A DNA stretch of 43,020 nt from an archaeon (GCA_035256265.1 DATEYJ010000020.1:1-43020); one strand, 5' to 3'. Counted from the stretch's first letter, positions 3,548 through 39,554 are shown. Numbers and translations: made by a program. The notes: a model not told the origin generated them from the sequence alone.

Positions 3548-3597
3548 ACAGCACCCCCCTCATCAAATTCAAATTATCATTCATTTATGGATTAAAT

Positions 3598-3948
3598 TTA
3601 TAAGCTGCCTGAGAGTTCCCTCATTCTCTTGAGCAGCTCCCTGTCCATGCCCCTCATGTCCTGGACTATCTCCCCCTGGAGCTCGAAGCCGTTCTCTATG
3701 GGCATCACCCTGCCGAAGACCCTGACGATCTGGTCGGTCTCCACCTCAACGGGGCTGTCGAAGCCTATGGTTATCTTACCCGTCCCGTCATCCAGGATTA
3801 TGCTCTCCTCCTGCTTGTCTATCACGGTCCCAATAAGGCTCACGCGCATGTCCTCTGCCATTATCCCGGATATGCGCCTCTCCACGGAAGGGATTCTCCT
3901 TTTTACAAAGCCCTCCCGGGGCTCCATGAAATCCTTGAGCTCCACCAT
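3598..3948 (-). CDS. OB-fold nucleic-acid-binding protein (small RPA-associated-like)
   Basis: 116 aa. Beta-rich core MRVSLIGTVIDKQEESIILDDGTGKITIGF...IVRVFGRV, typical of an OB fold. Lies next to PCNA. Exact family not determined. Confidence 0.55.
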   Translation of the reverse strand: MVELKDFMEPREGFVKRRIPSVERRISGIMAEDMRVSLIGTVIDKQEESIILDDGTGKITIGFDSPVEVETDQIVRVFGRVMPIENGFELQGEIVQDMRGMDRELLKRMRELSGSL

Positions 3949-4067
3949 GGAAATCCTCTATTGGATGTAGGCGGGCAAATCCGCCCAACTTAACTTATAT
4001 GTAGAGCCTTATGATTTATAAGTTTGAACGGCAAATAATCGCAACTATTAGCGGAAACGGTGTTCTG

Positions 4068-6957: not shown

Positions 6958-9900
6958 TCACATCACCTTGAACCACATCCCGGTGGTCTCCGTATTGCCG
7001 CCATAAGCGGTCTGTATGTCCGCCATGTATTCCCCTGACCAGGAGCCCTGGGGAATTATAATTATGATCGCGTATCCGTTCTGGTCTGTCTGCGTGACAT
7101 TGGCGGGAAGATTGTAATGGGTTCCCTGCTCCAGCTTCATGAACCCGAAGCCCGGCATGTTCCCCTTTATCGCGGGCACGCTCACGTTCGCCCCCTGTAT
7201 CGGGCTCTGGTCGAAGTTGTAAGCCCTCAGAAGTATGCTTATGTTCCTTGTCCCGTTTATCTCCCACTCGTCCTTGAGCAGGAGCATGTCCGTCCCGTTG
7301 TATTTCTCTATGTTCCACTGCGGCTGGTATTCCCACCTGAGGCCTTCCGTCTGATCGCCGAACCAGATGTTGCCTGACCATATGGAGCTCGGGAGGCTTG
7401 ACCTCTTCTCTCCCAAGCTTCCTGCCTCGTTTCCGTAGAAGTCCTTCTTGTAAACCGCGCTCTGGTTTGTGTTGCTTGAGGACCACCACTCCTCTGTTAT
7501 GTTCAGGTCGTCATCCACTATTATCTGGTTAAGGACCTGCTGGCCGTCATCAAAATCGTCAAATGTCACTGCATAGAACTGGTCGCCCTTATCCCCGTCC
7601 ATGTTCAGGTCCAGGCTCAGGGCGTTTTCATCAAGCAGATTGAAATAGCTGGTGGTGCTGTCCCTTGCCCTTATATCCACTGCAGGCCTTGGAAGGCTTC
7701 CAAGTGAGCTGAAATTGGCTATTATGATGCCTTCCCAGGGCGCAGGACCTACCTTTGCCGCATAGAGCTGGCTGGTAAAGTTTTCCCCTGCATATGCAGG
7801 AACAGCCTGGGAGAAGTTGGCACTCGTGCTGAACCATGCGCGCTTTATGCATTCCTGTATGTTCCAGACTGAGCACATGGGATATTCCATGGTGTCATTC
7901 GCAAGAATCACATTGTAATCCGTCCCGCTTATGTTGAGGCCCATGATAAACCAGACAGGTGATTCTGTCTCCTCTCCGGGCGGGCCCCACGTTTCCACCT
8001 TCACGGGGCTTATCTGGTCATTGAAGTCCTGGCTGTTTATGCCTATTACAACAGAATATGTATAGGCTTCGGCATCCAGCACCCTCACCATGTATTTCCT
8101 CGTGTTCTTGGTGACGTTTATGGCTGGCGCGGTCAAGGCGTCATACTCGGTTGTGTTGGTGGTGAAGTTGCAGTCCCCTGTCTTTATCCATACCCTGCTG
8201 GCATTGGAAGCTGTTATGTAATAATAATACTGGGGGTTCGTGAGCCTGCTGCTCCTGAGAGTGGCATTGGTTTCATTGCTTCCGGCTGCAGAAGGCTCCA
8301 CAAAATTGCATTCGGTCAGGTTTGCCATATTCCCGCCTCCTGCACCTGCAAGGTCCAGCACGCCCTTGAAGAACTTGCTCATATTTGTCCAGTTGACTGT
8401 GTAAAGCTGCATCGGTTCCCCGTAGCTTTCCCAGTCATACCTGCTTATTGGCAGCGGCTTGAATCCGGACACGTATCCTGCCTGGCCTGTGTAGCCGTTT
8501 ACAAGGAATGTCCTCGGGTTCGCCCGCGGCCACTTCCACTCCTCCAGTATCTCCTGGCTGGAGCCCTGGGCTACCCGTACCTCAAACACGTACTCTCCCG
8601 AGCCGAGGCTGTACTGGCTTATGTTGGCTATCCTCACCTCTCCGGTCCCGTTTATTGTGGCATTGGGAACGGATGACCCAAGCCCTTTTATGATGTTCAT
8701 GCCTGCTCCCTTGACCCTTATGTTCGGTATGGAGACGTTTGCCTCTGCCGGAGCGCCGGCGGGTGTCCTCACTATGACTGGTATTGAGATGTTGCCATCC
8801 ATCCTGAAGTCCCCGAGGCTTGCCCAGTCGCCTATCTTTTCCGAGTAGAACCTTGCCCTGTCAGCCCTCGGGTCTATGCTGAGCAGGATTACGGTATCGT
8901 TCAGGCCGAACCTCCTGGCGCTTATGTTCGGGTCGTTCACAGAGATTTCAGTGGAAAAGTTGCTGGTTCCTGTGTGGTTGAAAAAGAAGAAAGTGTCGTA
9001 AATCCCTGCCACGGCGCTGTCCGCTATGGCTATGTAAACCGAGCTGTTCGTGTATCCGTCCCCGTCAAGGTCCAGGCCCCTGCTCTGGCCTGTGCTCCTG
9101 TCCCATCCCCCAAGCCATCGCTCCTCTATCCTTCCCAGCTTTATCACCCCGCTCTTGGATTTGGACACGTTTATATATGCCCCTGTCTGCGGAAGGACGT
9201 TCATCCCGGTTATCTTTACCCTGCTCTTGCTTATTGAGCTGACCTTCCACTGGCCCCCATAGGGATCGCTGAATGTGTCACCCACCGTTCTAGCTGGTCC
9301 CAGCAGGCTCATGTTGGATGAGCTGTTTGAAATCCAGGCATGGGTCGTGTTGTGGTAAAAATAAAGGGAACGCGTCTGGTTTCCTGAGAGCGGCGTGAAC
9401 TCCCCTCCCCTGTCGCCTACGAGGTTCTCAAGGAAGCCGTGGTAGAATGAGGTGTGGCTGGAAGGCGGCCTCATTATGTAGCCGGACTGCTGGCATCCCT
9501 GATCCCCGCAGTTTATCCAGGACTCCCCGCAAACGCCGTCGGTATTGTTGATGTGGAAGGAATTGTTCTGGGGGTCTCCTATTGACACAACCGTCCAGTT
9601 GTTCCCCGCGGCTGAGAAATTGCCACCTGCGCTGATATTCTCCCCGCTTATGCTTAGCATGGTTCCATTGGACGAGACTGTTATGTTCTCCCCATCATCT
9701 GTCCCGCAGCCTTCGGACATCCATTCCCCGGAAGCTCTGATGCAGAATACCCGGATGTTCCATTCTCCCTGAACCCAGTTCCCAGGGAACGTCATCTGGT
9801 TGCTGCACCTGTCCCTGTCGTTGTTTACCTCCACGTCCTTTGAGGACGTCTCGGAGTATCCGACCCAGCCCTCCTCCACGCTGGGTATGCCCACAAGCGT

Positions 9901-12900
9901 GTTCTGCACCATGAATTCCAGGCGCTCGGCCTTCTCGTATCCCTGGCTGTCATTCACAGAGTATTCTGCAGAATACCGGCCTGGCTGGATGGATGAGAGG
10001 TTCGCCGTCACTGTGCACATGTTTCCTGAGCAGTTGGTGGCTGAAGCCAGCCTGAGAGGGTTGCCTGTTTTCTGGTTGAACACGGATTTCAGCTTCGTCC
10101 CGGCTTCGCTCAGGTTGTGTGGGTTGGTTTCAAAATCCAGGCCTGTGAAATTCACCGTGAGGTTCTCCGAGGATGAGAAGGCGGGCATCCAGTTGTCCCC
10201 CTTCCTGTAGGAAACCTCAATGTTGTACGTGGAAAGGCTGAAGAAGAAGCTTCCTATGTCCGAGCCCTTGCTCGTGGACACTCTGACATTCGCCTGGATG
10301 TCCCCGTCCTTGTCCAGGCCTGTTATGTTTATGACTGTCATGTTAACCGGTCCAGGGTTCCATTCTGTATATACGGGAGCGGTTCCTGCAGATATAGAAA
10401 GCGAATCTACCGGTATTTCCACAGGAGGCCAGCCGACCAGCCATTTCACGCTCTCCAGGGAAACGGATGACATTTGAAGCATGTCTCCTGTGGATGGATC
10501 CCTTGCGGAAACCGCAAAAAGCACGGTCCCGCCCTTCTCGAAAACCGAGCTCATGTCCCAGGAGCCGAGAAGCGCAGTCCCGTTATCGGTTATCTTCATG
10601 GCCTCAACGTAAAGGTTCCTTATCTCGAAGCCGCCCCAGCCGAAGTAGGAATTGTTCGCGTTTACAGGATCCCTTGCCAGAAGGTCCATGCCATACCATC
10701 CGCTCTGCATCCTGGAGCTGAGCGGGACTATCGTGAGGTTTGCCGTGGCGTTCGCGACCGGCGTGCTCTCGACATAATAATCTATCCCGTAGGTCATATC
10801 CTTCATTATCTGGTCATTCCTCAGGGAGCTCACATTAACAACCAAGCCATCACAGTCCGTGCATGTGAGGCTGTCCGTTCCCTTGCCCATCTGGCTCATC
10901 ATGCTTCCCTGGTCTATGTCCACGACATTGACTATGAGAGTTATGTTCTTCCCTGCGCCGCTTATGCAGGGCCCGAAGCTCTGGCTGCACTGGGGAGTTG
11001 CCCATATCATGTATTTCTTCAGCTGGAAGAATGCAGAGCCTGTCCCTGTCTCCTCTGTCCCGTTCACGAAGGCCTTGAACTTGAACCTCATGAAGAAGAA
11101 GCCCTCTGCATCAGGGGAATTGAATATCAGGGTCCCGTTCTGAATGCTCTCGTTCACGGATGTCCTGAACTCGCTTGTGAAAACGTCCTGGTAGTCCGGG
11201 AACTGTTTGTAAATCTCTATTATCTTGGCGCCTGTTATGTTCTGCGGGGGAAGGTCCTGCCTGGTGGCCAGGTCCCTTATCTTCAGCTTTATCTTCATGG
11301 TCGTGTTGGGCGCGAAGAACCAGTAATCGTCACCCTTGGAATCCACGGAGGCGCCTTCCGCATAAAGCCTCTGCACGCTGAAGCTTGCGCCTGCCTTCTT
11401 CCTCTCCCCATTGTGGCTGACTTCCGCCACCGCCTTGTAAGTTCCGGTCCTGTTGGGCGCTGCGAAAATTATCACGCACTGCCTCAAAATTTCCTGGGGC
11501 GGGCCCTCCTCCTCGGACATGGTGACGTTTGACATGCTTATTGCCCTGGAAATATTGACAGAATAATGGACGGGTATGTCCAGTCCAATTCCCCTGTCGT
11601 CCCTGAACTCCACAAAGGAAACCACACTTCCGCACTCATCATCCGGAGTGCTCGAATTGTCTATGTCTATCATGCCCGCCCCCTCGGGGCCCTGCGCCAT
11701 CATCCCGCCCGCGGAGATGTTCGAAAGGAAAACCATGAGGGTGATGTTGCCCTGCGGCGCGAACGCGTTCACCTGCGCCCCCTGGCCCTCTGCCTGGTCT
11801 ATGAAATCCATGTTCATCGCCATCAGCTCCAGGGAGGCGGACTCGACCGAGAACCCTGTTATGAATTCCTGGCTGCTGCCTCCGTACGCTCCTGTGATTT
11901 TCACCCCATAGTTCCCGTTAATACTTCCCAGAGAAAAGTCATGATAATAGCTCCCTGTATCGCTCTGCGTCATGCCTGCCGTGACGGAGGTTCCGTTGGG
12001 GTAGGTGATTTTCACAGAGCCTGAAGTGAGGTTGACAGCATTCCCGTCGGCGTCCCCTGAGCTGGCATATATCCTCACGATGGAGTTTGGCGCGAAGGAG
12101 GATGCTGGATTGTCTGAAAGGTCAGTTGCCTTTCCCGTTAGCTTGAATGACTCGACTGTGAAGAATCCTGTCCCTTTGCTGTTGTTCAGGTCTATTGTAT
12201 ACGAACCAGCGACTGAAGGGGCTGTGAAGCTCGCTGTGAAGAATCCCATGCTGTTTGTGGTGTTCGTGAGCGAGCTTATCACTCCTTTTGAGGAGTTCAT
12301 GAGCCTTGCATGCACGGTTACTCCGGCGGCAAGGTTCTTGTCCGAGTCCTTTGCCATGACTATGAAACTCACAGCAGAGCCTGCTGAATACACTGAACTG
12401 CCTTTTGGCTTCCCGAGGACTACCCTGTTTCCTGTATTATAGTCTATCTCCCCTATCATGTAGTCCCCGAATTTCTGCCCCTTCTGGAGTATCCTCTCTA
12501 CCATGTTCCCGGAGTCTTCTGTCCCATTGTCAGTGTCTATCAGGAAGCTGATGTCATCGTCTATATACAGGGTGTCATAGGTCTGGTTGTAGTTCTGGTC
12601 CATAAGGACGAAATGGTAAGTCATGCCGTCCATGCTCGCGTTTCCGTAATGGAGGGTCCCTGATATCGAGGAGGCTCTCGGCTCGGAGAAGTTCCCTCCC
12701 ATTGCATCATCTGCTGCTATTGTTGCGCTTGTGTCCACGGACTTTATGTCCTGTGTATTTATCAGGCGGGTCTCCAGGTACGTGATGGTTGAGACCACCT
12801 CGAAGCTCATTGGTATGGTGACCGAGCTGTCTGATATGTTTGCTGTGTATGTTCCCTCCAGTCCCGAAAGGGGTTGCGAAAGCGTGAATATGTTAGAGCC

Positions 12901-13134
12901 TGTGGAATTGGAGCTCAGGTTGTAGAATGATATGGGAGTTGCATTAGAGATGGCTGCAGTTATGTTCACGGGATTCAGCGTGTTTGTTATGTTCCCTGTT
13001 ATGATTATGTTCTCTCCTGCAGTATACACAAGCTTGTTTGTTGTTGCGTAGAATGAATATGCGCTCCCGGAGGAAGAGAGGGCTACCAGTGTGGAAACTG
13101 CGCAGATGACCAGAATTAAACTCTTACCACCCAT
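6958..13134 (-). CDS. giant secreted surface protein or adhesin (2058 aa), heavily N-glycosylatable
   Basis: Uninterrupted 6.2-kb ORF with signal peptide MGGKSLILVICAVSTLVALSSSGSA. My hand count gives about 84 N-x-S/T sequons. Ig/alpha-2-macroglobulin-like beta segments are present (VTVHARLMNSS...SYTIDL). Two Ca-binding-type DxDxDG loops occur (LDLDGDGYTNS, LNMDGDKGD). No C-terminal TM helix. Confidence 0.85.
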   Translation of the reverse strand: MGGKSLILVICAVSTLVALSSSGSAYSFYATTNKLVYTAGENIIITGNITNTLNPVNITAAISNATPISFYNLSSNSTGSNIFTLSQPLSGLEGTYTANISDSSVTIPMSFEVVSTITYLETRLINTQDIKSVDTSATIAADDAMGGNFSEPRASSISGTLHYGNASMDGMTYHFVLMDQNYNQTYDTLYIDDDISFLIDTDNGTEDSGNMVERILQKGQKFGDYMIGEIDYNTGNRVVLGKPKGSSVYSAGSAVSFIVMAKDSDKNLAAGVTVHARLMNSSKGVISSLTNTTNSMGFFTASFTAPSVAGSYTIDLNNSKGTGFFTVESFKLTGKATDLSDNPASSFAPNSIVRIYASSGDADGNAVNLTSGSVKITYPNGTSVTAGMTQSDTGSYYHDFSLGSINGNYGVKITGAYGGSSQEFITGFSVESASLELMAMNMDFIDQAEGQGAQVNAFAPQGNITLMVFLSNISAGGMMAQGPEGAGMIDIDNSSTPDDECGSVVSFVEFRDDRGIGLDIPVHYSVNISRAISMSNVTMSEEEGPPQEILRQCVIIFAAPNRTGTYKAVAEVSHNGERKKAGASFSVQRLYAEGASVDSKGDDYWFFAPNTTMKIKLKIRDLATRQDLPPQNITGAKIIEIYKQFPDYQDVFTSEFRTSVNESIQNGTLIFNSPDAEGFFFMRFKFKAFVNGTEETGTGSAFFQLKKYMIWATPQCSQSFGPCISGAGKNITLIVNVVDIDQGSMMSQMGKGTDSLTCTDCDGLVVNVSSLRNDQIMKDMTYGIDYYVESTPVANATANLTIVPLSSRMQSGWYGMDLLARDPVNANNSYFGWGGFEIRNLYVEAMKITDNGTALLGSWDMSSVFEKGGTVLFAVSARDPSTGDMLQMSSVSLESVKWLVGWPPVEIPVDSLSISAGTAPVYTEWNPGPVNMTVINITGLDKDGDIQANVRVSTSKGSDIGSFFFSLSTYNIEVSYRKGDNWMPAFSSSENLTVNFTGLDFETNPHNLSEAGTKLKSVFNQKTGNPLRLASATNCSGNMCTVTANLSSIQPGRYSAEYSVNDSQGYEKAERLEFMVQNTLVGIPSVEEGWVGYSETSSKDVEVNNDRDRCSNQMTFPGNWVQGEWNIRVFCIRASGEWMSEGCGTDDGENITVSSNGTMLSISGENISAGGNFSAAGNNWTVVSIGDPQNNSFHINNTDGVCGESWINCGDQGCQQSGYIMRPPSSHTSFYHGFLENLVGDRGGEFTPLSGNQTRSLYFYHNTTHAWISNSSSNMSLLGPARTVGDTFSDPYGGQWKVSSISKSRVKITGMNVLPQTGAYINVSKSKSGVIKLGRIEERWLGGWDRSTGQSRGLDLDGDGYTNSSVYIAIADSAVAGIYDTFFFFNHTGTSNFSTEISVNDPNISARRFGLNDTVILLSIDPRADRARFYSEKIGDWASLGDFRMDGNISIPVIVRTPAGAPAEANVSIPNIRVKGAGMNIIKGLGSSVPNATINGTGEVRIANISQYSLGSGEYVFEVRVAQGSSQEILEEWKWPRANPRTFLVNGYTGQAGYVSGFKPLPISRYDWESYGEPMQLYTVNWTNMSKFFKGVLDLAGAGGGNMANLTECNFVEPSAAGSNETNATLRSSRLTNPQYYYYITASNASRVWIKTGDCNFTTNTTEYDALTAPAINVTKNTRKYMVRVLDAEAYTYSVVIGINSQDFNDQISPVKVETWGPPGEETESPVWFIMGLNISGTDYNVILANDTMEYPMCSVWNIQECIKRAWFSTSANFSQAVPAYAGENFTSQLYAAKVGPAPWEGIIIANFSSLGSLPRPAVDIRARDSTTSYFNLLDENALSLDLNMDGDKGDQFYAVTFDDFDDGQQVLNQIIVDDDLNITEEWWSSSNTNQSAVYKKDFYGNEAGSLGEKRSSLPSSIWSGNIWFGDQTEGLRWEYQPQWNIEKYNGTDMLLLKDEWEINGTRNISILLRAYNFDQSPIQGANVSVPAIKGNMPGFGFMKLEQGTHYNLPANVTQTDQNGYAIIIIIPQGSWSGEYMADIQTAYGGNTETTGMWFKVM

Positions 13135-13234: not shown

Positions 13235-13630
13235 ATGGCCATGAAAGCCCAGATGTTCGTGCTGACCATGATATTCCTCATGGGCCTCATCTTCGCCGTC
13301 CAGCAGCTGCTCTTCCAGTACACCGCCCTGGACCTCTCCGCGCCCTTCAGGCAGAACCCTGTCTACCTTCTCGAAAATACCAAGAACATTATCAACCGCA
13401 CGATAAGGTTCACTCCTGAATGCGCGGACTTCGGGGCAAAAATGGAGGAATTCAATGACTTCCTTAACACAAGGGTCCCTCCGGGCGGCTACATAATCTC
13501 CCTCAGCTACAGGCTCAACTGCACCTACTGGAACAACCTTCCCCCAAATCCCACCCCCCTCAACGTGAGCATATTCATACAGGGCAGGGGCTCGGAGGCC
13601 TCCTCCATCCTTTATTTGTACCACAGATGA
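13235..13630 (+). CDS. pilin-like protein with an N-terminal hydrophobic helix (131 aa)
   Basis: N-terminus MAMKAQMFVLTMIFLMGLIFAVQQLLF: a short polar leader followed by a ~20-aa hydrophobic helix. First gene of the plus-strand operon. Confidence 0.6.
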   Translation: MAMKAQMFVLTMIFLMGLIFAVQQLLFQYTALDLSAPFRQNPVYLLENTKNIINRTIRFTPECADFGAKMEEFNDFLNTRVPPGGYIISLSYRLNCTYWNNLPPNPTPLNVSIFIQGRGSEASSILYLYHR

Positions 13631-13640
13631 TTTCTGGAAA

Positions 13641-13662
13641 GAAGGTGACTGAGGTCGCCTTC
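13641..13662. repeat. GC-rich hairpin family member (GAAGGTGAC-TGAG-GTCGCCTTC)
   Basis: 9-bp stem (one G.T pair) with a 4-nt loop. Lies between stop 13630 and the likely start at 13672. The 5' flank is CTGGAAA. Confidence 0.7.
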
Positions 13663-13671
13663 AAGCTGACG

Positions 13672-13794
13672 ATGCGAAAGAAAGGCTTTCTTGATATCAG
13701 CCTGAGGACAATCGTCCTGATAATTTTCGCGGTTGCGTTCCTCGCTCTTGCAATCCTCTGGGTCTCCAGATTTTTCGGGAACATGCCTTTCTAA
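13672..13794 (+). CDS. mini class-III-signal (pilin-like) protein, 40 aa from MRKKG (55 aa if started at 13627)
   Basis: Hand-translated; below the ORF-track cut-off. Sequence is MRKKG/FLDISLRTIVLIIFAVAFLALAILWVSRFFGNMPF, that is a basic leader ending in G followed by a hydrophobic helix. The alternative ATG at 13627 overlaps the upstream stop (ATGA), but its first 15 codons are the hairpin. Confidence 0.45.
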   Translation: MRKKGFLDISLRTIVLIIFAVAFLALAILWVSRFFGNMPF

Positions 13795-13808
13795 AGCAAA
13801 TCAACCGC

Positions 13809-13817
13809 TTTTATAAA
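13809..13817 (+). promoter_or_regulatory. TATA box (TTTTATAAA) for a leaderless transcript starting near 13840
   Basis: The box centre is about 27 bp upstream of the ATG at 13840. Confidence 0.5.
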
Positions 13818-13839
13818 CGTGCATGGATAATAACTTATT

Positions 13840-14436
13840 ATGCCAAGGAAAGGTGCCATAGAGCTCAGCCTCGGTTTCATAGTGACTGTTGTTTTTGCGG
13901 TTGTATTGCTGAGCCTGGCGATAGTGTGGCTTAATAGTATTTTCCCCACGCTTTTTGGCATAACGGACGATTTGTTCCAGCAGGCCCAGACACAGATCCA
14001 GGAAACGTTCCAGAAATCGGAAAACAATTTTGCAGTCTGGCCACCCAAATATGATCTTGCCAGAGGGCGGGAGCTGAAGATGGCCGCAGGGATAGAGAAT
14101 GATGCCGGTGATGCTAACACTCATCGGTTTGTTATTAATGTTATTCCTGCTACAGCCAGCGATAGTGTCTGCTCCGGAGGAGAGCTGGATGCATGCGGTA
14201 ACCTCAAGGCAGAGATGCAGAGCTGGATTACGTGGGACAGGCAGTCAAGCAGCATTGAGATAGACAGGGTCGGCTACAGGTGGATAATTATAAATCCACC
14301 TTCCAGCACAAAACTTGGAACTTACATATTCAACGTCGTTGCATGCAAGGAACCCATTACAACTGCTTCAGCATGCACGCTTGAGACCCTTAACTGGGGT
14401 GGCAGCGCCCAGCAGTTTCAGATAACCCTCAAATAG
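13840..14436 (+). CDS. archaeal type-IV-pilin-like protein with a class III signal peptide (198 aa)
   Basis: N-terminus MPRKG/AIELSLGFIVTVVFAVVLLSLAIVWL: basic leader, Gly at -1, an acidic residue early in the mature part, then a hydrophobic helix (DUF361/PF04021-type pattern). The globular C-terminal domain has 4 Cys. Confidence 0.7.
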   Translation: MPRKGAIELSLGFIVTVVFAVVLLSLAIVWLNSIFPTLFGITDDLFQQAQTQIQETFQKSENNFAVWPPKYDLARGRELKMAAGIENDAGDANTHRFVINVIPATASDSVCSGGELDACGNLKAEMQSWITWDRQSSSIEIDRVGYRWIIINPPSSTKLGTYIFNVVACKEPITTASACTLETLNWGGSAQQFQITLK

Positions 14437-14437
14437 A

Positions 14438-14446
14438 TTTTTTCTT
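14438..14446 (+). terminator. oligo-T tract (TTTTTTCTT) immediately after the stop at 14436
   Basis: Archaeal terminators are typically T-runs. A TATA box for the next gene follows. Confidence 0.35.
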
Positions 14447-14488
14447 CAGTTCGCCTTCTATCCATATGCAGCTTCCATCTATCCCGGA

Positions 14489-14497
14489 TTATATATT
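14489..14497 (+). promoter_or_regulatory. TATA box (TTATATATT) for a leaderless transcript starting near 14519
   Basis: The box centre is 26 bp upstream of the ATG at 14519. Confidence 0.5.
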
Positions 14498-14518
14498 CCA
14501 GCTAACCAATACTATGGT

Positions 14519-15001
14519 ATGGACGTCTCACTGATTTTCGGGATAATATTCACGCTCATTGTCATCGGTCTGCTCCTTGTCTTCGGAGGGGAGCAGATTG
14601 CCAATATCCTTGGTTTCGGAGGGCAGGCCCAGGTCCTGAAAACAATGGACAACCTGAAGAACAAGGTTGATGACATATACCGCCTCGGAGAGGGCTCGAG
14701 CGAGCAGTTCACGCTCTCTTTCCCCAAGGAGTACAGGCTATGCTTCTTCAATTCCTCGAACCCCGCAGACAGGTTCTATTCCGATAAGTCCATGACGTGG
14801 GACCCAGACTCGACCGTGAAATACGTTATAAACGCAAGCCGCTTCAACGTCTGGTACCACAGGGGTGAGGATGATGCAGCAGGGAGCGGGAAGAGTATTC
14901 CCTACCTAGAGATGCCCACGGAGAATAACTTCTGCGCCACGGGAGGAAAGAAGGTCTACATAGTCAAGAGATACGACTGGGTCGAGGTAGAACCGTTTTG
15001 A
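14519..15001 (+). CDS. pilin-like protein with an N-terminal hydrophobic helix (160 aa)
   Basis: N-terminus MDVSLIFGIIFTLIVIGLLLVFGGEQ, followed by a globular domain. Confidence 0.6.
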   Translation: MDVSLIFGIIFTLIVIGLLLVFGGEQIANILGFGGQAQVLKTMDNLKNKVDDIYRLGEGSSEQFTLSFPKEYRLCFFNSSNPADRFYSDKSMTWDPDSTVKYVINASRFNVWYHRGEDDAAGSGKSIPYLEMPTENNFCATGGKKVYIVKRYDWVEVEPF

Positions 15002-15006
15002 GAGAG

Positions 15007-15043
15007 GAGGCGGCAACATTGCGGGCAGAGCTTGCCGCCTCCG
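15007..15043. repeat. extended hairpin related to the GAAGGCGGC family (GGAGGCGGCAA-N15-TTGCCGCCTCC)
   Basis: 11-bp perfect stem with a 15-nt loop, in the 67-bp gap between genes 14519..15001 and 15069..16214. Confidence 0.65.
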
Positions 15044-15068
15044 GTATAGAGCCCGCTAAGGGTGAAAT

Positions 15069-16214
15069 ATGCTGGCTGTCCACAGGATTTTCCAGATGAT
15101 CTTCGGGATAATAGTGTCAGTTACACTTCTTTACTTCCTCATAAGCTATTCCGGGGACTACCAGTGCACGCAGAAGGACCTGCAGAGGGCGAAGATACTC
15201 AAGGCCTTCTCTGACCAGTCCAGGGATGTCTACCTTACAGGGATATCCACCAACTTCACTCATTTCTCCAGATATAACTTCTCCTCCTGCTACATAAAGT
15301 TCCAGGATAGGGACGTACCGCAGATGGAATGCGTGGGCTCTGACACCTCCTGCCATGGTGTACAGGTTTCGGGAATTCCCATAGAGACCCCTGCACTGTT
15401 CTATCCGGGAAAGGAAGTCTACATGGGAAGGGACACCCTGGATTACGGCTGGTGGGCCTTCAATATAGTGGAGGCGATGCCGGACACCGTCTTTGTCTTC
15501 GATCCTATAGAGGGGACGGAGGAGAACTGGCAGGTCATGAGGGATATAGTGGAGCACCTGCCTGACACCTCTGACGACTGGAGTGTTGTGGAGGTCGGAT
15601 TTGCCTTCTGCGACGGGTCTGAGATACTTAATGTGTGTGGGGGGCAGCCATGCAGCAAGCAGGAGTTCCTTTCCGTTCTTGACGCGCCGCCTTCTGCCAC
15701 GTCCAGATGCACGGCAAGCCTGAAGGCCAACATGAGGCTTGTCACGATATCCAATTCGTGCAGCAACTCCTTCACGGAGAGAGATGTGTGCATAATCCCT
15801 CCGAATTCAAAGGGTGTGGGGAACGCCTTCCTTGTGGGCTCTGCAAAGGCCTATGTATGGAAGGACCCGCTTGACTTGGTGTCCCTTGCCCTAGGCGGCT
15901 CCGGGAAGGATGATTTCGGCAAGACCGCGGGAGAGAGACTTTACAGCTACAAGAATTCCCTGCTCATGGGAAAGCTTTCCCTTGCCTCTGAAATGATGTC
16001 AAAGAGGTGCGTCCTGGTAGCGGGGAAAATCCCGGAGGAGACAGGATGCGGCTCTGTATACATAGAGCTTTCCCAGGTCCTTGACAGGATTCCAGGAAAG
16101 GACTACCAGAGCCTTTCAGATATGTACGAGCTGAATGACAGGCTGAATGAGGCAAAGGCACTTTACCAGAGCCTTGTTGAAAAGGGATGCGAGAGGAGTG
16201 AATATGGAATGTGA
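15069..16214 (+). CDS. membrane-anchored or pilin-like extracellular protein (381 aa)
   Basis: N-terminus MLAVHRIFQMIFGIIVSVTLLYFLISY. GGTGA Shine-Dalgarno-like motif 5 nt upstream. Cys-rich globular part. Confidence 0.6.
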   Translation: MLAVHRIFQMIFGIIVSVTLLYFLISYSGDYQCTQKDLQRAKILKAFSDQSRDVYLTGISTNFTHFSRYNFSSCYIKFQDRDVPQMECVGSDTSCHGVQVSGIPIETPALFYPGKEVYMGRDTLDYGWWAFNIVEAMPDTVFVFDPIEGTEENWQVMRDIVEHLPDTSDDWSVVEVGFAFCDGSEILNVCGGQPCSKQEFLSVLDAPPSATSRCTASLKANMRLVTISNSCSNSFTERDVCIIPPNSKGVGNAFLVGSAKAYVWKDPLDLVSLALGGSGKDDFGKTAGERLYSYKNSLLMGKLSLASEMMSKRCVLVAGKIPEETGCGSVYIELSQVLDRIPGKDYQSLSDMYELNDRLNEAKALYQSLVEKGCERSEYGM

Positions 16215-16722
16215 GATTCTCGGGGCAAGAGTCCCGAGCAGCCTGAAAGGCCAGTCCGAGATGATGGAGCACATACTCATGGTAGTATTCATAGTGGCAG
16301 CCATACTTGCCCTGATACTCTTCCTCACATGGTGGAATGTCCAGCAGCTGAACATGGAGGCCTCCAGGAACAGGCAGGACAGGATACTTGACCTGGCCCA
16401 GCATATGATGGGGGATTACCTACTCGTGAACGAGAACTACATGCTTGACGATGCGAAGCTCACCTCGGTAAATGCGGTTTCTGGATGCGAGAAGCTCGAG
16501 AGGCTCTTTGGGACGGACTGGTACGCAAGGGTAAGGGCCCTGGACATGGAGGATGAGATTCCGTGCACGTGGAATAATTATCCTGACTGCAATTCCTGGA
16601 CCATATGCAGCTATCCGGAAGAGAGAAGGAACGTCCTTGTGCAGAAATTCCCTGCAAATGTTTACAGGAAGGTCTCGGACAAAGTAGCGCTGGCTGTATT
16701 GGAAGTGGGGGTGTACTCATAA
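16204..16722 (+). CDS. class-III-signal pilin-like protein (172 aa)
   Basis: Start at MECEILGARVPSSLKG/QSEMMEHILMVVFIVAAILALILFL. This is the same KG/Q-[SA]-E motif as gene 17405. Overlaps the upstream gene by 11 nt. Confidence 0.6.
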   Translation: MECEILGARVPSSLKGQSEMMEHILMVVFIVAAILALILFLTWWNVQQLNMEASRNRQDRILDLAQHMMGDYLLVNENYMLDDAKLTSVNAVSGCEKLERLFGTDWYARVRALDMEDEIPCTWNNYPDCNSWTICSYPEERRNVLVQKFPANVYRKVSDKVALAVLEVGVYS

Positions 16723-17330
16723 TGAGCTGCAAAACAAATGAATGGTATGATGAAGGTGGAATTTCAAGCGTCCAATCAAATTCCGCCTTCCGTCATAACC
16801 GCAGCAAGGTGCATGCCTTGAGAGCGCAAAGCAGCATGATATTGATAATAATCGTGCTCATGATGTTCGTGGCCATAGCCGTCTTCCTGCTTCAGGTGGC
16901 GAGCACTGTGAGCAACCAGGAATACACGGTCCTTTACGCGAACAGCCTCCTTCTGACTGTGATGAGGACGGACACGGGATATACGGACTCCAGGTGCAAG
17001 CTTGTGTCCGACCTCGTTGTGTGCGCATGCTTCACTCCTACATGGCGATGCGGAGATATTGAATGCGCGCAGCTCGCCAATGAAACTCTGGCAGGGTATA
17101 TGGATGTCTTTGGCAACCAGACAACTCATTTAAAATATCTTTTCACGTCCACCTCGCAGGCCCACTGCATAGACTCAGAAGGAAATTCCATGGCACTGGA
17201 AATCGGGGATAAGACTCTGAAAAAATCCAGGGAGACATTCAAGGTATTCTCTTATCCTCTCACTATTCCTAAGACTTTTGACTACAATTCGTATATTATG
17301 ACAATGCAGTTGATAATTGCAAATAAATAA
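16722..17330 (+). CDS. membrane-anchored or pilin-like protein (202 aa)
   Basis: The start overlaps the upstream stop (TAATG). It has a ~38-aa polar leader, then MILIIIVLMMFVAIAVFLLQVAS. The extracellular part has 5 Cys. Confidence 0.5.
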   Translation: MSCKTNEWYDEGGISSVQSNSAFRHNRSKVHALRAQSSMILIIIVLMMFVAIAVFLLQVASTVSNQEYTVLYANSLLLTVMRTDTGYTDSRCKLVSDLVVCACFTPTWRCGDIECAQLANETLAGYMDVFGNQTTHLKYLFTSTSQAHCIDSEGNSMALEIGDKTLKKSRETFKVFSYPLTIPKTFDYNSYIMTMQLIIANK

Positions 17331-17350
17331 ATGAACCGGATTCAGGGTAT

Positions 17351-17375
17351 TTTTCTGCATATTTTTTCTGCATAT
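17351..17375 (+). repeat. tandem direct repeat TTTTCTGCATAT x2 (period 13) abutting a TATA box
   Basis: Copies at 17351-17362 and 17364-17375, read directly. Lies in the 59-74 bp gap upstream of gene 17405. Confidence 0.7.
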
Positions 17376-17383
17376 TATATATA
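17375..17383 (+). promoter_or_regulatory. TATA box (TTATATATA) for a leaderless transcript starting near 17405
   Basis: The box centre is 26 bp upstream of the ATG at 17405. This favours 17405 over the ORF-track start at 17390. Confidence 0.5.
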
Positions 17384-17404
17384 CCAAGAATGACAATTAT
17401 TAGT

Positions 17405-19231
17405 ATGGCTAAGGGCCAGGCGGAGTTCGCAGTAATCATAGGGATAGTTATCGTCGCAGCTGTGGTTATTATTTATGCGCTCCCTAACATCACGAATCCT
17501 ATCATCCCTTCGGGGAAGTATGGAATGTTCAAGGCCTCCTTCGAGAGCCTCGTGCGGGACGGGGCGCAGGACACCATGAGCAGGCTCTCTGCTTACGGAG
17601 GCTATCCTGACAACTCCTCCTTCCAGCTCGGCTCTGTTTCTTTCCTCGGAAAGGAGGTTCCCTACTGGCAGAAGGACGGGAGTGTAAAATACCCGAATGT
17701 GAAGGACAATTTTGTCCAGGGAGTTTCTAGCTATCTTTCCAAAAACAAGGAAGGCTTTCTCCAGGAGATGAAGATGGCAGGCCTGGAAATTGGAGAGCCC
17801 AGGGTGAGCGCGAACATGCTTGCGAGCAAGATAATCATAACCGTGAACATGCCGACCAAGATAGACGGGACCAATTATCCGCAGCCTTATACCGTGGAAA
17901 TCCCGTCAAGGCTCGGGGAGATAGAGGAGTTCTCCAAGGCGTTCGCGCAGTATGACAAGAACAGCAGGCCTTTGGAGTACTATACGCTCTCCTCCATGAT
18001 AATAAGCCCTATGGAGGAGGATGTGCACAGCGTTCCCATACAGATATTCCTGACAGAGTGCGGAGAGTACGTGTTCAGGAGCTGGTGGGACATAAAGCCC
18101 AGCCTGGAGAATGTGATAAAGGCCACGCTCGCCCAGACCTACATGCCCGGGAAGGCTCCCCTGAACACCATGATGACCTCATCCTCGCCAAAATATTCCC
18201 TTGTCCCTCTTAACGGGAAGAGGTATGAGTCTCTTGATGTTAGTTTCTTCCTTCCTGACAATTTTGAGCTCACGCCCGCTGACTTCCAGTTCTCCCCTGA
18301 CCCCATAATCGCAATCTCACAGGTGATACCCATGGTGGGGCAGTGCCAGTCAGACCCTGTATATGTGAAATACTACCTCTCCTATCCAGCCATAGTGAGG
18401 GTGAAGGACCCGCTCACCCAGAATGTGTTCCAGTTCGCTGTCCATGTGTACATAGAGGATAACAAGCCCGGGGACTGGTCCGGAACTGGATATGAGACTG
18501 ACGTCCAGAAGCAGATATGCTCGAATCCCCAGTGCTCTGCTGACATCTCCCTGAAGGACAGCCTCGGGAAACCGGTAGATTATGCGGCTGTCAGCTTCAT
18601 GGGATGCAGCTTGGGAAGGACGGATTCCCAGGGTATTCTCAGGGTTCCTGCCCCGTGCGGGCTAGGGCCGCTTCAGGTTTACAAGCAGGGATATGAATCC
18701 TACGGGAGGATGCAGTCCTCTGACAGCATACGCGGGCTTTCCCTAACCCTTGCAAAAACCCCGGCAATCAGGCTCCATCTTTACGAGGTGATTGTCCAGA
18801 ACATCTCCCTCAACGGGAAGTATGACATCTCCCAGGACGGGATAAGCCCGATAGCTACGAACAGGCTCGTGTACATGAACCTGTATGACACGACCAATGT
18901 CAAGGCTTACCAGAGGGGTTTCAGCGCGGCAGGGAACCTGCTGAACTCCATGCCTGCAGGGCCTTACATAATCACGGCAAGCCTGATCTCCGCAGGCGGG
19001 GAAGAGCTCGGGGCGATTCTGGTGGACTACACGCTTTCCGAGAGCCTGGACGGGAAGGACCTTTATGTGTACCTTCCAGACAGCCTGGACTACGGGAAGA
19101 TAACGGACGAGGCAGAGAAGGCGGGCGCCACGGTGACGCTCACGAACGTGCTCACGAAATGCGGGCTTGGCCCCATCTCTCTCTCAGAAGTGAACTTTAA
19201 CGGATGCTCGGTGGGATACAATGAAGTTTAG
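17405..19231 (+). CDS. large class-III-signal pilin-like protein (608 aa) with a carboxypeptidase-regulatory/PEGA-like beta domain
   Basis: N-terminus MAKG/QAEFAVIIGIVIVAAVVIIYAL (DUF361-type). An internal segment DISLKDSLGKPVDYAAVSFMGCSLGRTDSQGILRV...QVYKQGYESY resembles CarboxypepD_reg/PEGA folds. Confidence 0.7.
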   Translation: MAKGQAEFAVIIGIVIVAAVVIIYALPNITNPIIPSGKYGMFKASFESLVRDGAQDTMSRLSAYGGYPDNSSFQLGSVSFLGKEVPYWQKDGSVKYPNVKDNFVQGVSSYLSKNKEGFLQEMKMAGLEIGEPRVSANMLASKIIITVNMPTKIDGTNYPQPYTVEIPSRLGEIEEFSKAFAQYDKNSRPLEYYTLSSMIISPMEEDVHSVPIQIFLTECGEYVFRSWWDIKPSLENVIKATLAQTYMPGKAPLNTMMTSSSPKYSLVPLNGKRYESLDVSFFLPDNFELTPADFQFSPDPIIAISQVIPMVGQCQSDPVYVKYYLSYPAIVRVKDPLTQNVFQFAVHVYIEDNKPGDWSGTGYETDVQKQICSNPQCSADISLKDSLGKPVDYAAVSFMGCSLGRTDSQGILRVPAPCGLGPLQVYKQGYESYGRMQSSDSIRGLSLTLAKTPAIRLHLYEVIVQNISLNGKYDISQDGISPIATNRLVYMNLYDTTNVKAYQRGFSAAGNLLNSMPAGPYIITASLISAGGEELGAILVDYTLSESLDGKDLYVYLPDSLDYGKITDEAEKAGATVTLTNVLTKCGLGPISLSEVNFNGCSVGYNEV

Positions 19232-22200
19232 GATAATCGCTCTGGAGACATTTGCGATATTCGTCTCATACCTGGTCTTCTCCCTGACCATGGTCGCAGC
19301 CACTGACGTGAACATAATGTTCAATGGGGTGGTCCAGGACACAGCAAAGTATGACCATGAAAAGATAATAAACCTCCAGGTATCCACCAAGCACGACCCG
19401 AATGATGTGACATGGACGAACATAAAGCTTGCGGTCATGGTGAACAGCGCCAGCCTAAGCCACAGCATAAAGAAGATATACCTTTACAAGTGCAGGAGCG
19501 TCACCCCGACAGAATGCGTGCGCTCCACGCCACAGGTGTTTGACAATTACGCGGACACTGAGCTGCTCTGGAATGACATATACGAGAAGACAGGCCCTGC
19601 CCAATACCCGCAACTGGCCAACCTGCTCTTCCTGGTGAAGATGGAGGACCTGAACAAGAAGGAGAGCTGGGTTGGTATGTTCACCCAGACCAGGAGGACA
19701 AACTACAACATCTTTGACACGCAGCAGCTGAGCGTGCAGAGCATAGACCTGTACGCAAAGTCCTTAGACCTCGTGGAGCCCATAAAGGCCTACATAGAAA
19801 ACAAGTTCATGATTCCATTCAAGTGGGTGAGCAAGGCTGTGTTCTCAGGCTCCACCCAGCTTTACGGCATGGGAGCGGACAGCCAGGATCTGGAAACACC
19901 TACCATCCAGACAGCCGTGGTCACTGGTAACGAGATAACGAACATAAACAAGGAGTTCTACTTCGTCTCCCCGAAGATCAGCTCAGGGATAGCCAGCCCC
20001 ATAACCCTTAACCTGAACCCTTCATTTTCCTGCGGGAACAGCGTGTGCGAGAGCGACATAGGGGAGACCACGAAATCCTGCTGCTATGACTGCGGCTGCG
20101 GGCCCGGCCAGTTCTGCGATACCGCCTCTAACATAAACCTGAGCGCGTGCAAGGATGACGGCCAAAGCCTTTCCGTAATCTCAGCCTCATCCCAGCCCAT
20201 CTCGGACTGCGCAAAGGGCTTCAACGCCAACATCTCTGTCCGCGTGAGCAACCCTCCCGCGAGCCTTAGCTCCCAGCTCCAGGGGACTGTCTCCCTCAAC
20301 AAGACGCTTTATAGCGTGACGTGCTCGGGAAGCTCAGGCTCATATGAGTGCACGATTCCCCTTACCTCGAACATAAAGTGCGGAAGCGGCTCCTATGTGA
20401 TAGGCCCGGGCATCCTCAACCTCACGATAAGCTACAAGGACGGCCCCAACTCCGCGAGCAAATCCTTGAGCGCCTCCTTCTCCGGCGTCTCGGTCAGCTA
20501 TGACTGCAAGTGCCAGGACGGCTCCTACTGCGACTCGCTCAAGAAGACCTGCCAGTCCGAGGCCGCAATCACACTTGGCATAACCAAGCTCACCTCCTAC
20601 TTGGATAATTACAATCCAGGGGACAGGATAAGCCTTACCGCAAAGATATTCAACCCGCCCGCAGGCCTTGTCCTGGTGGACAAGAGCGCCACCATGAACC
20701 TCACGAACGGCCAGGTAGCCCCGGGAACCCCGGACTGCTCAGCCCCCAATTCCCAGTTCGAGTATAATTGCACCATACCCTTCCAGATATCAAACTACCA
20801 GAAGACCCAGGCCTACACCTTCAATCCAAACACCCTTCACTTCACAATCACATACAATGACGGCCCGCTCGCCAAGACCAGGACCATCTCAGCTCCTTTC
20901 GGCCCCGTGAGCATACCCTCCCAGTACTGCGGGGACAGCCAGTGCAACATGGGAGAGAGCCAGGCCACGTGCTGCCTGGACTGCGGCTGCCCGAGCCCCG
21001 GGACCCAGTACTGCGACAAGACCTCGGGCTGCAGGAATCTTGATTCCCTATCCATATCCGTGAACTCGGTAAATCCCGTGAACTTCACGGACTGCAGGCA
21101 GGCCCATGCGGTCTACCTCACGATCCCTGTCGCGAACGCCCCCACTGACATCAGCCTTGACTACTTCGCGTACATGCAGAACGGCCTTGTGAAGGGCTGG
21201 CAGATGAAATGCGACAAGGTCGCTGTCAGCATATTCAACTGCACGCTCGTGATCCCCGCGCTTGAGAGCGAGGGCTGCTCCCTTCCCTACAAGACCATAA
21301 GCGGGAACTCCATAAACATGACCATCTCATTCCCTGACGGGAAATCCAAGCAGATAGTCAGGCACCTTAACGCGCCCTTCCAGGACCTTTATGTGACTCC
21401 CGTATACCACTGCGGGGACGGCACGTGCGAATCCTCGCTTGGAGAAAATCCAAGCGTGTGCTGCTATGACTGCCCATGCAAGGACTCCTCCTCTTTCGGG
21501 GAGGACTACTACTGCGACTTCGACCAGCAGACCTACCTGGGCGGCTGCCTTCCCAAGTCCAGCATCTCTCTTGTTATAGACTCCCCCAAGGTCACTGTCT
21601 CCCTCACCAGCTGCGAAATCACGAACAGCGTGAATGTCAAAGCCCATATAGAGAACCAGCCCGGGAGCGCGAGGCCCCAATACTTCTACGCCACCATAAA
21701 TGGCACTGCCGCTGAGATGGTGCACTGTGACCAGGAGCAGGCCTTCCAGGGAGGCAACCTCAGCTTCAACTGCACGCTCATGCTTCCCAGGATATACATG
21801 TGCTCCCAGGGCCAGACCTACACCTTCTCTCCAAACGCCCTCTCCGTCCTCCTAAGCTACCAGAACGGGAAGCAGAAGACTGAGACACAAACCCTCTCGG
21901 CCCCCCTGCCCACCATCATAATCAGGCAGGGCATCCGCTCCCTTTACGACATCACCCAGGAAGGGATAGCCAAGATGAAGCAGAGGCTGTACAGGACAAT
22001 AGAGATAGCGAGGGACCTTTACGGCGCAATCAAGGACTGCATGGAGACTGTCAAGACCCTGGTATACCTCCAGCTTGTCCTCACCATCGCAGGGGCTATA
22101 GCAGGCTCAGCTAGCACCGATACTCAAATTAAAACCCCTCAAGGTGGATATGCATCAGATCCTTTTTCGAAGGCGGTAGCCGGCGCTTACGTAGGAAGCC

Positions 22201-22991
22201 AGATAGGCGGCAGCCTCGTGCAGTCATACTCGAAGCTGTGCGAATTCCTCCAGGCCCAGTACCGCATCGACCTGGAGATACAGAACATGGAGATCAAGAT
22301 GATAAACATGGAGATGTGCATGGAAGTCTATCAACACCAGCTTGACATAGGGCGGTGTGACAAGTCTCCGGAATCCTGCTTCACCAGCATAACGTCATGT
22401 GTGAACACCGGCCTGAGCGACGTGAGCTCCTCCGCGGACAAGCTGAGCGACATAGTGAGCAAGGCCACCAACAGCCTCCAACAGAGCACATCAATACTGG
22501 GAAGCGTGTACAACTCGGTTGGCATAGTAACCGGGTCATCCAGCTCGGGCGGGACTACATCTATCCAGATGAGATGTGATGAAAGGCAGCTTGAGTGGAG
22601 CGGCGACTCCTGTTGCAATGTTAGAGGAAGTGCCACAACAACCACAACCGGCACCACAACCACATATGAATGCAAGGATAAAAAAATCCTCAGCTTGTTC
22701 ATAGCAAACAAGGCACAGAATTGCAGCGCCCTCATAACCGAACAATGTAAAGAAGATGGTAGTAGTTGCTTTATGTATAAAGATGGCGCATGGTCCGTAG
22801 ATGTAGATAAGTTGATAGACAAAACAACTACGTTAGGCTTCAAGTTCTACTGCTATAACAACAATAATGAGTATAACACAGATACGGAGACTGGCAGAAC
22901 CAAACATATGATAAGTGCGTCAAGTGGCGATAAATACTATAAAATCGAATTAAAGAAAAACGATGCTTCAAAGGTCACGTGCAATTGCTAA
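19221..22991 (+). CDS. 1256-aa modular cysteine-motif surface protein with a late TM helix and a Cys/Thr-rich tail
   Basis: Overlaps the upstream gene by 11 nt. Signal/anchor MKFRIIALETFAIFVSYLVFSLTMVAA. Four modules begin with a CG[DN]xxC...GE....CC.DC.C....YCD-type motif (one degenerate). Each is followed by a beta domain containing [YF][EN]CT[IL]. Hydrophobic helix LVYLQLVLTIAGAIAGSA. Tail contains TTTTTGTTTT and many Cys. Confidence 0.8.
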   Translation: MKFRIIALETFAIFVSYLVFSLTMVAATDVNIMFNGVVQDTAKYDHEKIINLQVSTKHDPNDVTWTNIKLAVMVNSASLSHSIKKIYLYKCRSVTPTECVRSTPQVFDNYADTELLWNDIYEKTGPAQYPQLANLLFLVKMEDLNKKESWVGMFTQTRRTNYNIFDTQQLSVQSIDLYAKSLDLVEPIKAYIENKFMIPFKWVSKAVFSGSTQLYGMGADSQDLETPTIQTAVVTGNEITNINKEFYFVSPKISSGIASPITLNLNPSFSCGNSVCESDIGETTKSCCYDCGCGPGQFCDTASNINLSACKDDGQSLSVISASSQPISDCAKGFNANISVRVSNPPASLSSQLQGTVSLNKTLYSVTCSGSSGSYECTIPLTSNIKCGSGSYVIGPGILNLTISYKDGPNSASKSLSASFSGVSVSYDCKCQDGSYCDSLKKTCQSEAAITLGITKLTSYLDNYNPGDRISLTAKIFNPPAGLVLVDKSATMNLTNGQVAPGTPDCSAPNSQFEYNCTIPFQISNYQKTQAYTFNPNTLHFTITYNDGPLAKTRTISAPFGPVSIPSQYCGDSQCNMGESQATCCLDCGCPSPGTQYCDKTSGCRNLDSLSISVNSVNPVNFTDCRQAHAVYLTIPVANAPTDISLDYFAYMQNGLVKGWQMKCDKVAVSIFNCTLVIPALESEGCSLPYKTISGNSINMTISFPDGKSKQIVRHLNAPFQDLYVTPVYHCGDGTCESSLGENPSVCCYDCPCKDSSSFGEDYYCDFDQQTYLGGCLPKSSISLVIDSPKVTVSLTSCEITNSVNVKAHIENQPGSARPQYFYATINGTAAEMVHCDQEQAFQGGNLSFNCTLMLPRIYMCSQGQTYTFSPNALSVLLSYQNGKQKTETQTLSAPLPTIIIRQGIRSLYDITQEGIAKMKQRLYRTIEIARDLYGAIKDCMETVKTLVYLQLVLTIAGAIAGSASTDTQIKTPQGGYASDPFSKAVAGAYVGSQIGGSLVQSYSKLCEFLQAQYRIDLEIQNMEIKMINMEMCMEVYQHQLDIGRCDKSPESCFTSITSCVNTGLSDVSSSADKLSDIVSKATNSLQQSTSILGSVYNSVGIVTGSSSSGGTTSIQMRCDERQLEWSGDSCCNVRGSATTTTTGTTTTYECKDKKILSLFIANKAQNCSALITEQCKEDGSSCFMYKDGAWSVDVDKLIDKTTTLGFKFYCYNNNNEYNTDTETGRTKHMISASSGDKYYKIELKKNDASKVTCNC

Positions 22992-39516: not shown

Positions 39517-39554
39517 GCGTATAGTTTTCGGATTTCGGGAATATAAATGCAGAA

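Follow-up and report, generated by a model that had tools for sequence, protein, structure and literature searches.

A conserved Aenigmatarchaeota gene cluster encoding type IV pilin-like proteins and large adhesin-like partners

The DUF361 pilins of archaea carry a leader of 5-13 aa that ends in Gly and is followed by a conserved Gln at +1 and Glu at +5 (PMC3875500). In Methanococcus maripaludis, the Epd/DUF361 repertoire includes the major pilin MMP1685 and the minor pilins EpdA-C and MMP1283, which are processed by EppA, and the minor pilins are needed for piliation (PMC3875500). Herein, we analyzed a stretch of 43,020 nt (GCA_035256265.1, DATEYJ010000020.1:1-43020; the window), in which eight tandem open reading frames (ORFs), g1 to g8, all lie on the + strand at 13235-19231 and are followed by an overlapping large gene, g9. 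The source lineage of the window is Aenigmatarchaeota (DPANN). An earlier reading of this DNA from its sequence alone (the sequence-only reading) had described eight pilin-like genes with DUF361-type leaders and no assembly machinery nearby. Our results reveal an operon-like cluster that is conserved in the examined Aenigmatarchaeota loci and codes for six or seven surface proteins resembling type IV pilins, together with large adhesin-like partners. The families are unannotated, the kind of archaeal system is already well known rather than new, and of the known systems the Epd/DUF361 repertoire of M. maripaludis comes nearest in design. We consider it probable that g1-g9 are a conserved cluster for the subunits of a surface structure of the type IV filament (TFF) or type IV pilus-like kind.

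The N-termini were scanned for class III (prepilin-type) signals, defined as [KR][GA] within 40 residues, followed by 18 residues with a mean Kyte-Doolittle hydropathy of at least 2. Six of the eight cluster genes (g1, g2, g3, g6, g7, and g8) were positive, with a site of the form [KR][GA]/[QAF], and none of the 19 other genes of the window was. Each of the eight products has a single N-terminal hydrophobic segment. The N-termini quoted in the sequence-only reading, MPRKG/AIELS (g3), ..SLKG/QSEMME (g6), MAKG/QAEF (g8), and MRKKG/FLDIS (g2), were all correct. Its count of four class III members was too low, since g1 (MAMKA/QMF) and g7 (..LRA/QSS) also carry the motif and keep it in their orthologues.

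The orthologues gave the patterns K[GA]/QMF for g1, [KR][GA]/A[IF][EQ]LSLGF for g3, [KR][GA]/Qxx[ML][ML]EY for g6, [KR][GA]/Q[ST]S[MI]IL for g7, and KG/QxEF for g8, where G4 and Q5 are at least 90% conserved and E7 is invariant. The g4 pattern was M-x-[VT]-G/[ML][VI]FG, which has no basic residue at -2 (the window copy has Ser at -1), and the g5 pattern was MIxVYRxFQxIFGII, with no G/A site. The genes are real and conserved, and most have a class III N-terminus. However, eight pilins are too many, because g5 has no motif and g4 has no basic -2 residue.

In the g1, g3, g6, g7, and g8 families, compared at up to 17 loci, the leaders of approximately 2-35 aa were conserved in neither length nor sequence, whereas the residues from -2 onward were conserved. 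This is the signature expected of a cleaved prepilin leader. When the paralogues were compared using hhalign, similarity was confined to the N-terminal regions (g4-g5, 94.7%; g6-g7, 81%; g3-g4, 75%), as is usual for pilin sets.

An alternative is that unrelated surface proteins carry these segments as ordinary signal anchors that stay uncleaved or as Sec signal peptides, with [KR][GA] being merely the usual positive-inside charge beside a transmembrane helix. The absence of any matching pilin family model, the lack of a canonical site in g4 and g5, and Foldseek matches to generic Ig-like domains would agree with it. However, G or A at -1 and Q (or A) at +1 are conserved in the orthologues of six different families while the preceding residues are not, the motif occurs in 0 of 19 background genes, and the paralogues are linked by profile-level similarity of their N-termini. 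Moreover, the true Sec-type neighbors of the cluster (g9, the flanking surface-protein genes d474 and d566, and the divergent gene u2058) are built differently, their AxA-like sites lying behind the hydrophobic core. Considering the conserved -1 and +1 positions and this contrast with the Sec-type neighbors, we regard ordinary signal anchors as unlikely.

The g2 product shares 45% identity with the N-terminus of g3. In our numbering of cluster-bearing contigs and their relatives (L001-L024), g2 was present only in contigs of the window's own species (L001-L004); in all other loci no such gene lies between g1 and g3, and in L008-L024 the sole BLAST matches of g2 were the g3 orthologues. This restriction, together with the match to the g3 N-terminus, indicates a recent partial duplicate of the 5' end of g3, which could either serve as a mini-pilin or be degenerating. 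As for g7, its leader is 35 aa when counted from the coupled ATG. The L008 orthologue is likewise extended far upstream, leaders of 3-18 aa are found in most of the others, and a TTG just before LRAQ is a possible start.

The cluster resembles the Epd repertoire in having many pilin-like genes of very different sizes, pilin loci apart from the ATPase and platform genes, and class III leaders with Gln at +1, which is common to g1, g6, g7, and g8. It differs in that no PF04021 match and no sequence similarity were detected, and in that the acidic residue is not at +5 but at +3 (invariant in g8, E or Q in g3) or +6 (g6); g1 and g7 have none and carry Ala at -1. No EppA-like gene is present in the cluster, whereas the M. 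maripaludis EppA gene is in an operon with EpdA-C (PMC3875500). PF04021 (Class_IIIsignal/DUF361) had no match at E≤1 in g1-g9, in 16 g4 relatives, or in 10 distant g3-like proteins, and none among the matches listed for 55 g3 relatives (the 25 most frequent of 29 families). Given this result and the replacement of the +5 Glu hallmark, the description 'DUF361-type' has to be dropped. To our knowledge, the 608-aa modular g8 and the coupled 1256-aa g9 have no Epd counterpart.

Bacterial minor-pilin/adhesin operons are a second point of comparison. The fimU-pilVWXY1E operon of Pseudomonas aeruginosa, like the GspH-I-J-K tip pseudopilins of the type II secretion system, represents a tandem, partly coupled pilin-like set with a very large, non-canonical adhesin partner; such operons are encoded apart from the assembly ATPase, and some members lack the conserved acidic residue. 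The organization of our cluster is like that of the minor-pilin/PilY1 operons by analogy only, not by homology: they belong to another domain of life, no sequence similarity exists, and the predicted heads are beta-sandwiches here but an alpha-beta roll in bacteria. In addition, g9 was not PilY1-like by any search run.

To place the cluster among its relatives, 17 related loci were collected with a g8 alignment of 24 closer sequences, and their DNA was read to at most 10 kb per side, less on short contigs. All 17 loci recovered with g8 were in metagenome-assembled genomes (MAGs) titled Aenigmatarchaeota or 'uncultured archaeon', and the g8 homologues carry the labels Candidatus Aenigmarchaeota or Aenigmatarchaeota. 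BLAST of the window proteins against the locus ORFs revealed the order g1, g3-g9, then d474 (+) and d566 (-) in most of these loci, with orthologue identities from approximately 65% down to approximately 30%. The loci often shared their flanking housekeeping genes, namely PCNA and AspRS on one side and ERCC4 on the other. The order PCNA, AspRS, surface cluster, ERCC4 nuclease (window 2798-5363 and 27420-28103) was kept in L007 despite a g8 identity of 42%, indicating that the cluster occupies a stable core-genome position and is not a mobile island. Distant relatives retain only g8 and the overlapping large gene, and CP070801.1 additionally retains g7. The persistence of the overlapping g8-g9 pair there without g1-g7 indicates that these two genes are the oldest module.

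The gene content of the window is archaeal (PCNA, TFIIB, thermosome subunit, Pus10, class II AspRS, ERCC4, and CTP synthase). Public gene calls agree with the g1-g8 products of 131, 55, 198, 160, 381, 172, 202, and 608 aa, and public contigs such as GCA_964482385.1 and ENA ERZ28563994 carry near-identical copies of the region. An exact look-up of the g8 protein in its 613-aa and 608-aa forms returned no record, whereas that of g3 did match.

The junctions and promoter-like elements were consistent with the layout suggested in the sequence-only reading. The coupled junctions are all present: ATGA joins g1 and g2, TAATG joins g6 and g7, and the pairs g5/g6 and g8/g9 overlap by 11 nt. TATA-like boxes starting at 13810, 14489, and 17375 each lie 30 nt before the ATG of g3, g4, and g8, respectively. 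Those of g3 and g8 keep their spacing in almost every orthologous locus and that of g4 is kept in closer loci, while no TATA box was found upstream of g5, g6, or g7. Only seven runs of at least five T are present in these 10 kb, of which a T6 follows the g3 stop and a T5 and a T6 follow the g7 stop. From the positions of the boxes and the T runs, we predict four transcription units, g1-g2, g3, g4-g5-g6-g7, and g8-g9, with leaderless starts for g3, g4, and g8. This predicted division into coupled groups, with conserved TATA boxes placed for leaderless transcripts, supports one of the two options of the sequence-only reading, that of separately regulated leaderless sub-units. The features are listed in Table 1.

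Table 1. Cluster genes, predicted transcription signals, and adjoining surface-protein genes in window coordinates; a slash separates residues -1 and +1
Feature	Position	Strand	Description
g1	13235-13630	+	131-aa pilin-like, MAMKA/QMFVLTMIF...; weak TATA-like ATTTTAA ~27 nt upstream
g2	13627-13794	+	55-aa mini-ORF, or 40 aa from ATG at 13672 (MRKKG/FLDISL...); helix-only
TATA box TTTATA	13810-13815	+	30 nt before g3 ATG; kept in orthologous loci
g3	13840-14436	+	198-aa pilin-like, MPRKG/AIELSLGFIV...; candidate major subunit
T6 run	14438-14443	+	immediately after g3 stop; likely archaeal terminator
TATA box TTATATAT	14489-14496	+	30 nt before g4 ATG
g4	14519-15001	+	160 aa, MDVS/LIFGIIF...; non-canonical pilin-like N-terminus
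g5	15069-16214	+	381-aa Cys-rich; N-terminal hydrophobic helix MLAVHRIFQMIFGIIV; no G/A cleavage site
g6	16204-16722	+	172-aa pilin-like, ..SLKG/QSEMMEHIL...; 11-nt overlap with g5
g7	16722-17330	+	202-aa pilin-like, ..HALRA/QSSMILIII...
T5 + T6 runs	17350-17367 (starts 17350, 17362)	+	after g7 stop; likely terminator
TATA box TTATATATA	17375-17383	+	30 nt before g8 ATG (17405); kept in orthologous loci
g8	17405-19231	+	608-aa modular pilin-like, MAKG/QAEF...; adhesin-like
g9	19221-22991	+	1256-aa Cys-rich secreted protein; Sec-type signal peptide
d474	23857-25281	+	surface protein, signal peptide and C-terminal membrane anchor; syntenic in most relatives
d566	25320-27020	-	Cys-rich surface protein, C-terminal anchor, acidic ...EEFY tail; syntenic in most relatives

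Structure models were generated using AlphaFold2 for g3 and g8. The g3 model, built from 55 sequences, had a pLDDT of 88.7 and showed helices at residues 9-39 and 46-59 together with an Ig-like beta-sandwich. The predicted architecture of a long N-terminal helix and a beta-sandwich fits archaeal pilins, but the match is generic: Foldseek returned PapD/MSP-like, GH123-N, and WxLIP Ig-like domains with TM scores of 0.3-0.46. The g8 model, built from 53 sequences, had a pLDDT of 87.8. In it, the N-terminal helix (4-25) leads through a low-confidence linker rich in Pro to another helix (37-63), and an alpha/beta domain and a number of beta-sandwiches follow. The Foldseek matches of g8 were adhesin-type Ig-like and carboxypeptidase-regulatory-like (CarboxypepD_reg-like) domains with low TM scores, and PF13620 was found in one distant g8 homologue. 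The helix and beta-sandwich of g3 speak for a pilin fold, while the short g8 helix and the absence of an archaeal pilin among the top 50 Foldseek matches of g3 do not agree with it.

A profile search of 1.84 billion proteins assigned 2219 representative clusters to the g3 family at E≤0.001 and 719 at E≤1e-10. Its members are mostly 170-210 aa long, with N-termini of the form M..[KR][KR][GA]/[AI][IF][EQ]LS, and at least one is from Ca. Nanoarchaeia, another DPANN lineage (contig JAQUOT010000001.1). In the three distant members whose loci were read, from Ca. Nanoarchaeia and two metagenome contigs, the gene stands alone among housekeeping genes. Stand-alone genes of this sort are the pattern used by Makarova et al. 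to predict major pilins (PMC4858521). The g3-like proteins match the pattern of archaeal class III pilin genes outside type IV pilus operons, including those of DPANN (Makarova et al. 2016, 2019; PMC4858521, PMC6393860), although the g3-type gene here is within a conserved surface cluster of 9 to 11 genes. The idea that the set comprises minor or tip pilins only is therefore doubtful, considering the very large size of the g3 family, whose proteins have ~190 aa, and that the three distant members examined stand alone.

Near the stand-alone g3-like gene of JAQUOT010000001.1 (L027), there are five unannotated tandem genes at 3054-5487 (-), of which four encode Cys-rich proteins of 109-131 aa with N-terminal anchors and the fifth encodes a 117-aa protein that lacks a hydrophobic segment at the N-terminus. 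These products were considered as prepilins and rejected because they have no class III motif. The g5 family yielded only 31 matches, all among sequences of Aenigmatarchaeota type, and both organism-named ones are Aenigmarchaeota/Aenigmatarchaeota. A P-loop-like string in g5, GKDDFGKT, was attributed to chance, as its Lys is not conserved in the family consensus.

Neither a secretion ATPase (T2SSE-type) nor a FlaJ/TadC-type platform nor an A24 prepilin peptidase was found in the 43-kb window, and the related-locus DNA, read to at most 10 kb per side, contained no ATPase, platform, or peptidase gene. A P-loop scan of all ORFs of at least 200 aa in L001-L024 returned only Cdc6 and chance strings. 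The sequence-only reading was thus right that no machinery is nearby, but this is not a peculiarity of the locus. Archaeal pilin genes are commonly found outside machinery operons (PMC4858521; PMC3875500), indicating that the absence in cis is real but ordinary. FlaG, FlaI, and FlaJ homologues are present in most Aenigmarchaeota MAGs (PMC8407114), and DPANN pilins often have no detectable similarity to known pilins (PMC6393860).

The main rival of the filament reading is that the proteins are class III-processed without forming a filament, their helices being held in the membrane or in a short stub as part of a fixed surface complex with g9, d474, and d566. Such an arrangement would resemble the Sulfolobus bindosome (Bas) and the class III substrate-binding proteins, functional extracellular proteins of large size that, like g8, have a class III signal and a hydrophobic N-terminal helix and that are displayed by a TFF machine located elsewhere. 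The g8 protein differs from them in having Ig-like and CarboxypepD_reg-like domains instead of a solute-binding domain, and no ABC transporter genes are adjacent. The short helix of g8, of transmembrane length and followed by a flexible linker, the co-conserved anchored surface proteins that crowd the neighborhood (g9, d474, and d566), and the finding of machinery in cis at no locus all fit such a display complex, and the use of class III-signal proteins for display, in place of a filament role, is common across archaea (bioRxiv 10.64898/2026.04.22.720090). However, the size, helix length, and beta-sandwich head of g3 are as in a polymerizing archaeal pilin, and its family is very large, with the examined members standing alone in the major-pilin pattern of Makarova et al. 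We therefore hold display without a filament to be possible but unlikely. Since assembly of the bindosome itself needs a TFF ATPase and platform, the distinction between display and filament is one of degree.

The following scheme for a filament encoded by this cluster is an inference in its cleavage, its assembly, the roles given to the subunits, and any part in host contact. The products of g1, g3, g6, g7, and g8, plus the fragment g2 and possibly g4, would be preproteins with class III signal peptides. A PibD/EppA-type prepilin peptidase, presumably encoded elsewhere, would cut after [KR][GA] and leave a hydrophobic N-terminal helix, which an ATPase/platform pair, also presumably encoded elsewhere, would use to assemble the subunits into a pilus or a short pseudopilus. 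The best candidate for the main filament subunit is g3, on account of its 198 aa, its helix and beta-sandwich model, its own conserved, putative leaderless promoter and its likely terminator, and its very large family; a major pilin may thus be in the set. The coupled genes g4-g5-g6-g7 most likely encode accessory (minor) subunits of low abundance, and g8, with its Ig-like domains and translational coupling to g9, most likely forms together with g9 an adhesive tip or display module.

Several observations weigh against a filament. In g5 there is no cleavage site, in g4 there is no basic -2 residue and the window copy has Ser at -1, and the g7 leader, counted from the coupled ATG, would be 35 aa long. 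Structure models cover two of the nine proteins g1-g9 (g3 and g8). No archaeal pilin was among the top 50 Foldseek matches of g3, all being generic beta-sandwiches with TM scores of 0.3-0.46, and the N-terminal helix of g8 is approximately 22 residues long and then gives way to the linker, unlike one long pilin helix. No Pfam or NCBIfam pilin, archaellin, or class III model matched any cluster member above noise, and profile searches of g3, g4, g5, and g8 against the PDB sequences matched no solved pilin. Finally, the peptidase, ATPase, and platform in this organism rest on a paper about other MAGs (PMC8407114).

Below the threshold, DUF7289 appeared in 4 of 16 g4 relatives (E 0.07-0.15), and Arch_flagellin (PF01917; E 0.054) and DUF7287 (E 0.066) each appeared in 1 of 55 g3 relatives. 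PDB matches of g4 to AI-designed TIM barrels were judged spurious, and a match of g8 to a 70-aa fimbrial protein (E 0.49) was non-significant.

A bolder version of the filament proposal, which we put forward as speculative and rather unlikely, is that g4-g9, d474, and d566 make up a lineage-specific host-contact organelle of Aenigmatarchaeota. In such an organelle, a small pilin-primed stalk would present a Cys-rich g8-g9 adhesin complex to the host cell. It would be built of families without relatives outside the phylum (g5, g8, and g9), and the non-canonical N-termini of g4 and g5 might be inserted without prepilin-peptidase cleavage. Aenigmatarchaeota are uncultivated DPANN with small genomes that are thought to be host-dependent. 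The cluster, made up entirely of 'hypothetical proteins' without Pfam coverage, yields a candidate surface apparatus, with g3 as filament subunit and g8-g9 as adhesin, and its motifs can be used to annotate thousands of related unannotated DPANN proteins. It leaves the understanding of type IV filaments unchanged.

The g9 protein contains 60 Cys and three copies of CG-x3-C-E-x(5-8)-CC-x-DC-x-C, has a helix-rich C-terminal third, and matched no Pfam or other family. Its N-terminus (..ALE..) was considered as a pilin-like site and rejected in favor of a Sec signal peptide, since position -1 is neither G nor A and the hydrophobic core is followed by a conserved A-T site. The public contig L001 has g9 as two products, of 827 and 424 aa, suggesting a frameshift or a difference of assembly on that contig. 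Beyond the membrane anchor of d566, a conserved acidic cytoplasmic tail (..EEEFY, ..DEDFY, or ..EEEF) was present in nearly all orthologues (L007-L024) and might serve to dock a partner in the cytoplasm.

On the other side of the cluster, the divergent gene u2058 (6958-13134, -) encodes a secreted protein of 2058 aa that has an MG2 (alpha-2-macroglobulin-like) domain and carries 83 N-glycosylation sequons. The gene was found only in the closest relatives (L001, L002, and L008), and its product could be an S-layer protein or a giant adhesin. The adjoining gene (5360-6955, -) encodes a 531-aa surface protein. Elsewhere in the window, a 471-aa ORF whose product has no Pfam match (39555-40970, -) is overlapped by approximately 300 nt by the longest ORF of the downstream Pus10 gene, which is 522 aa (38290-39858, -); the Pus10 start is probably further downstream.

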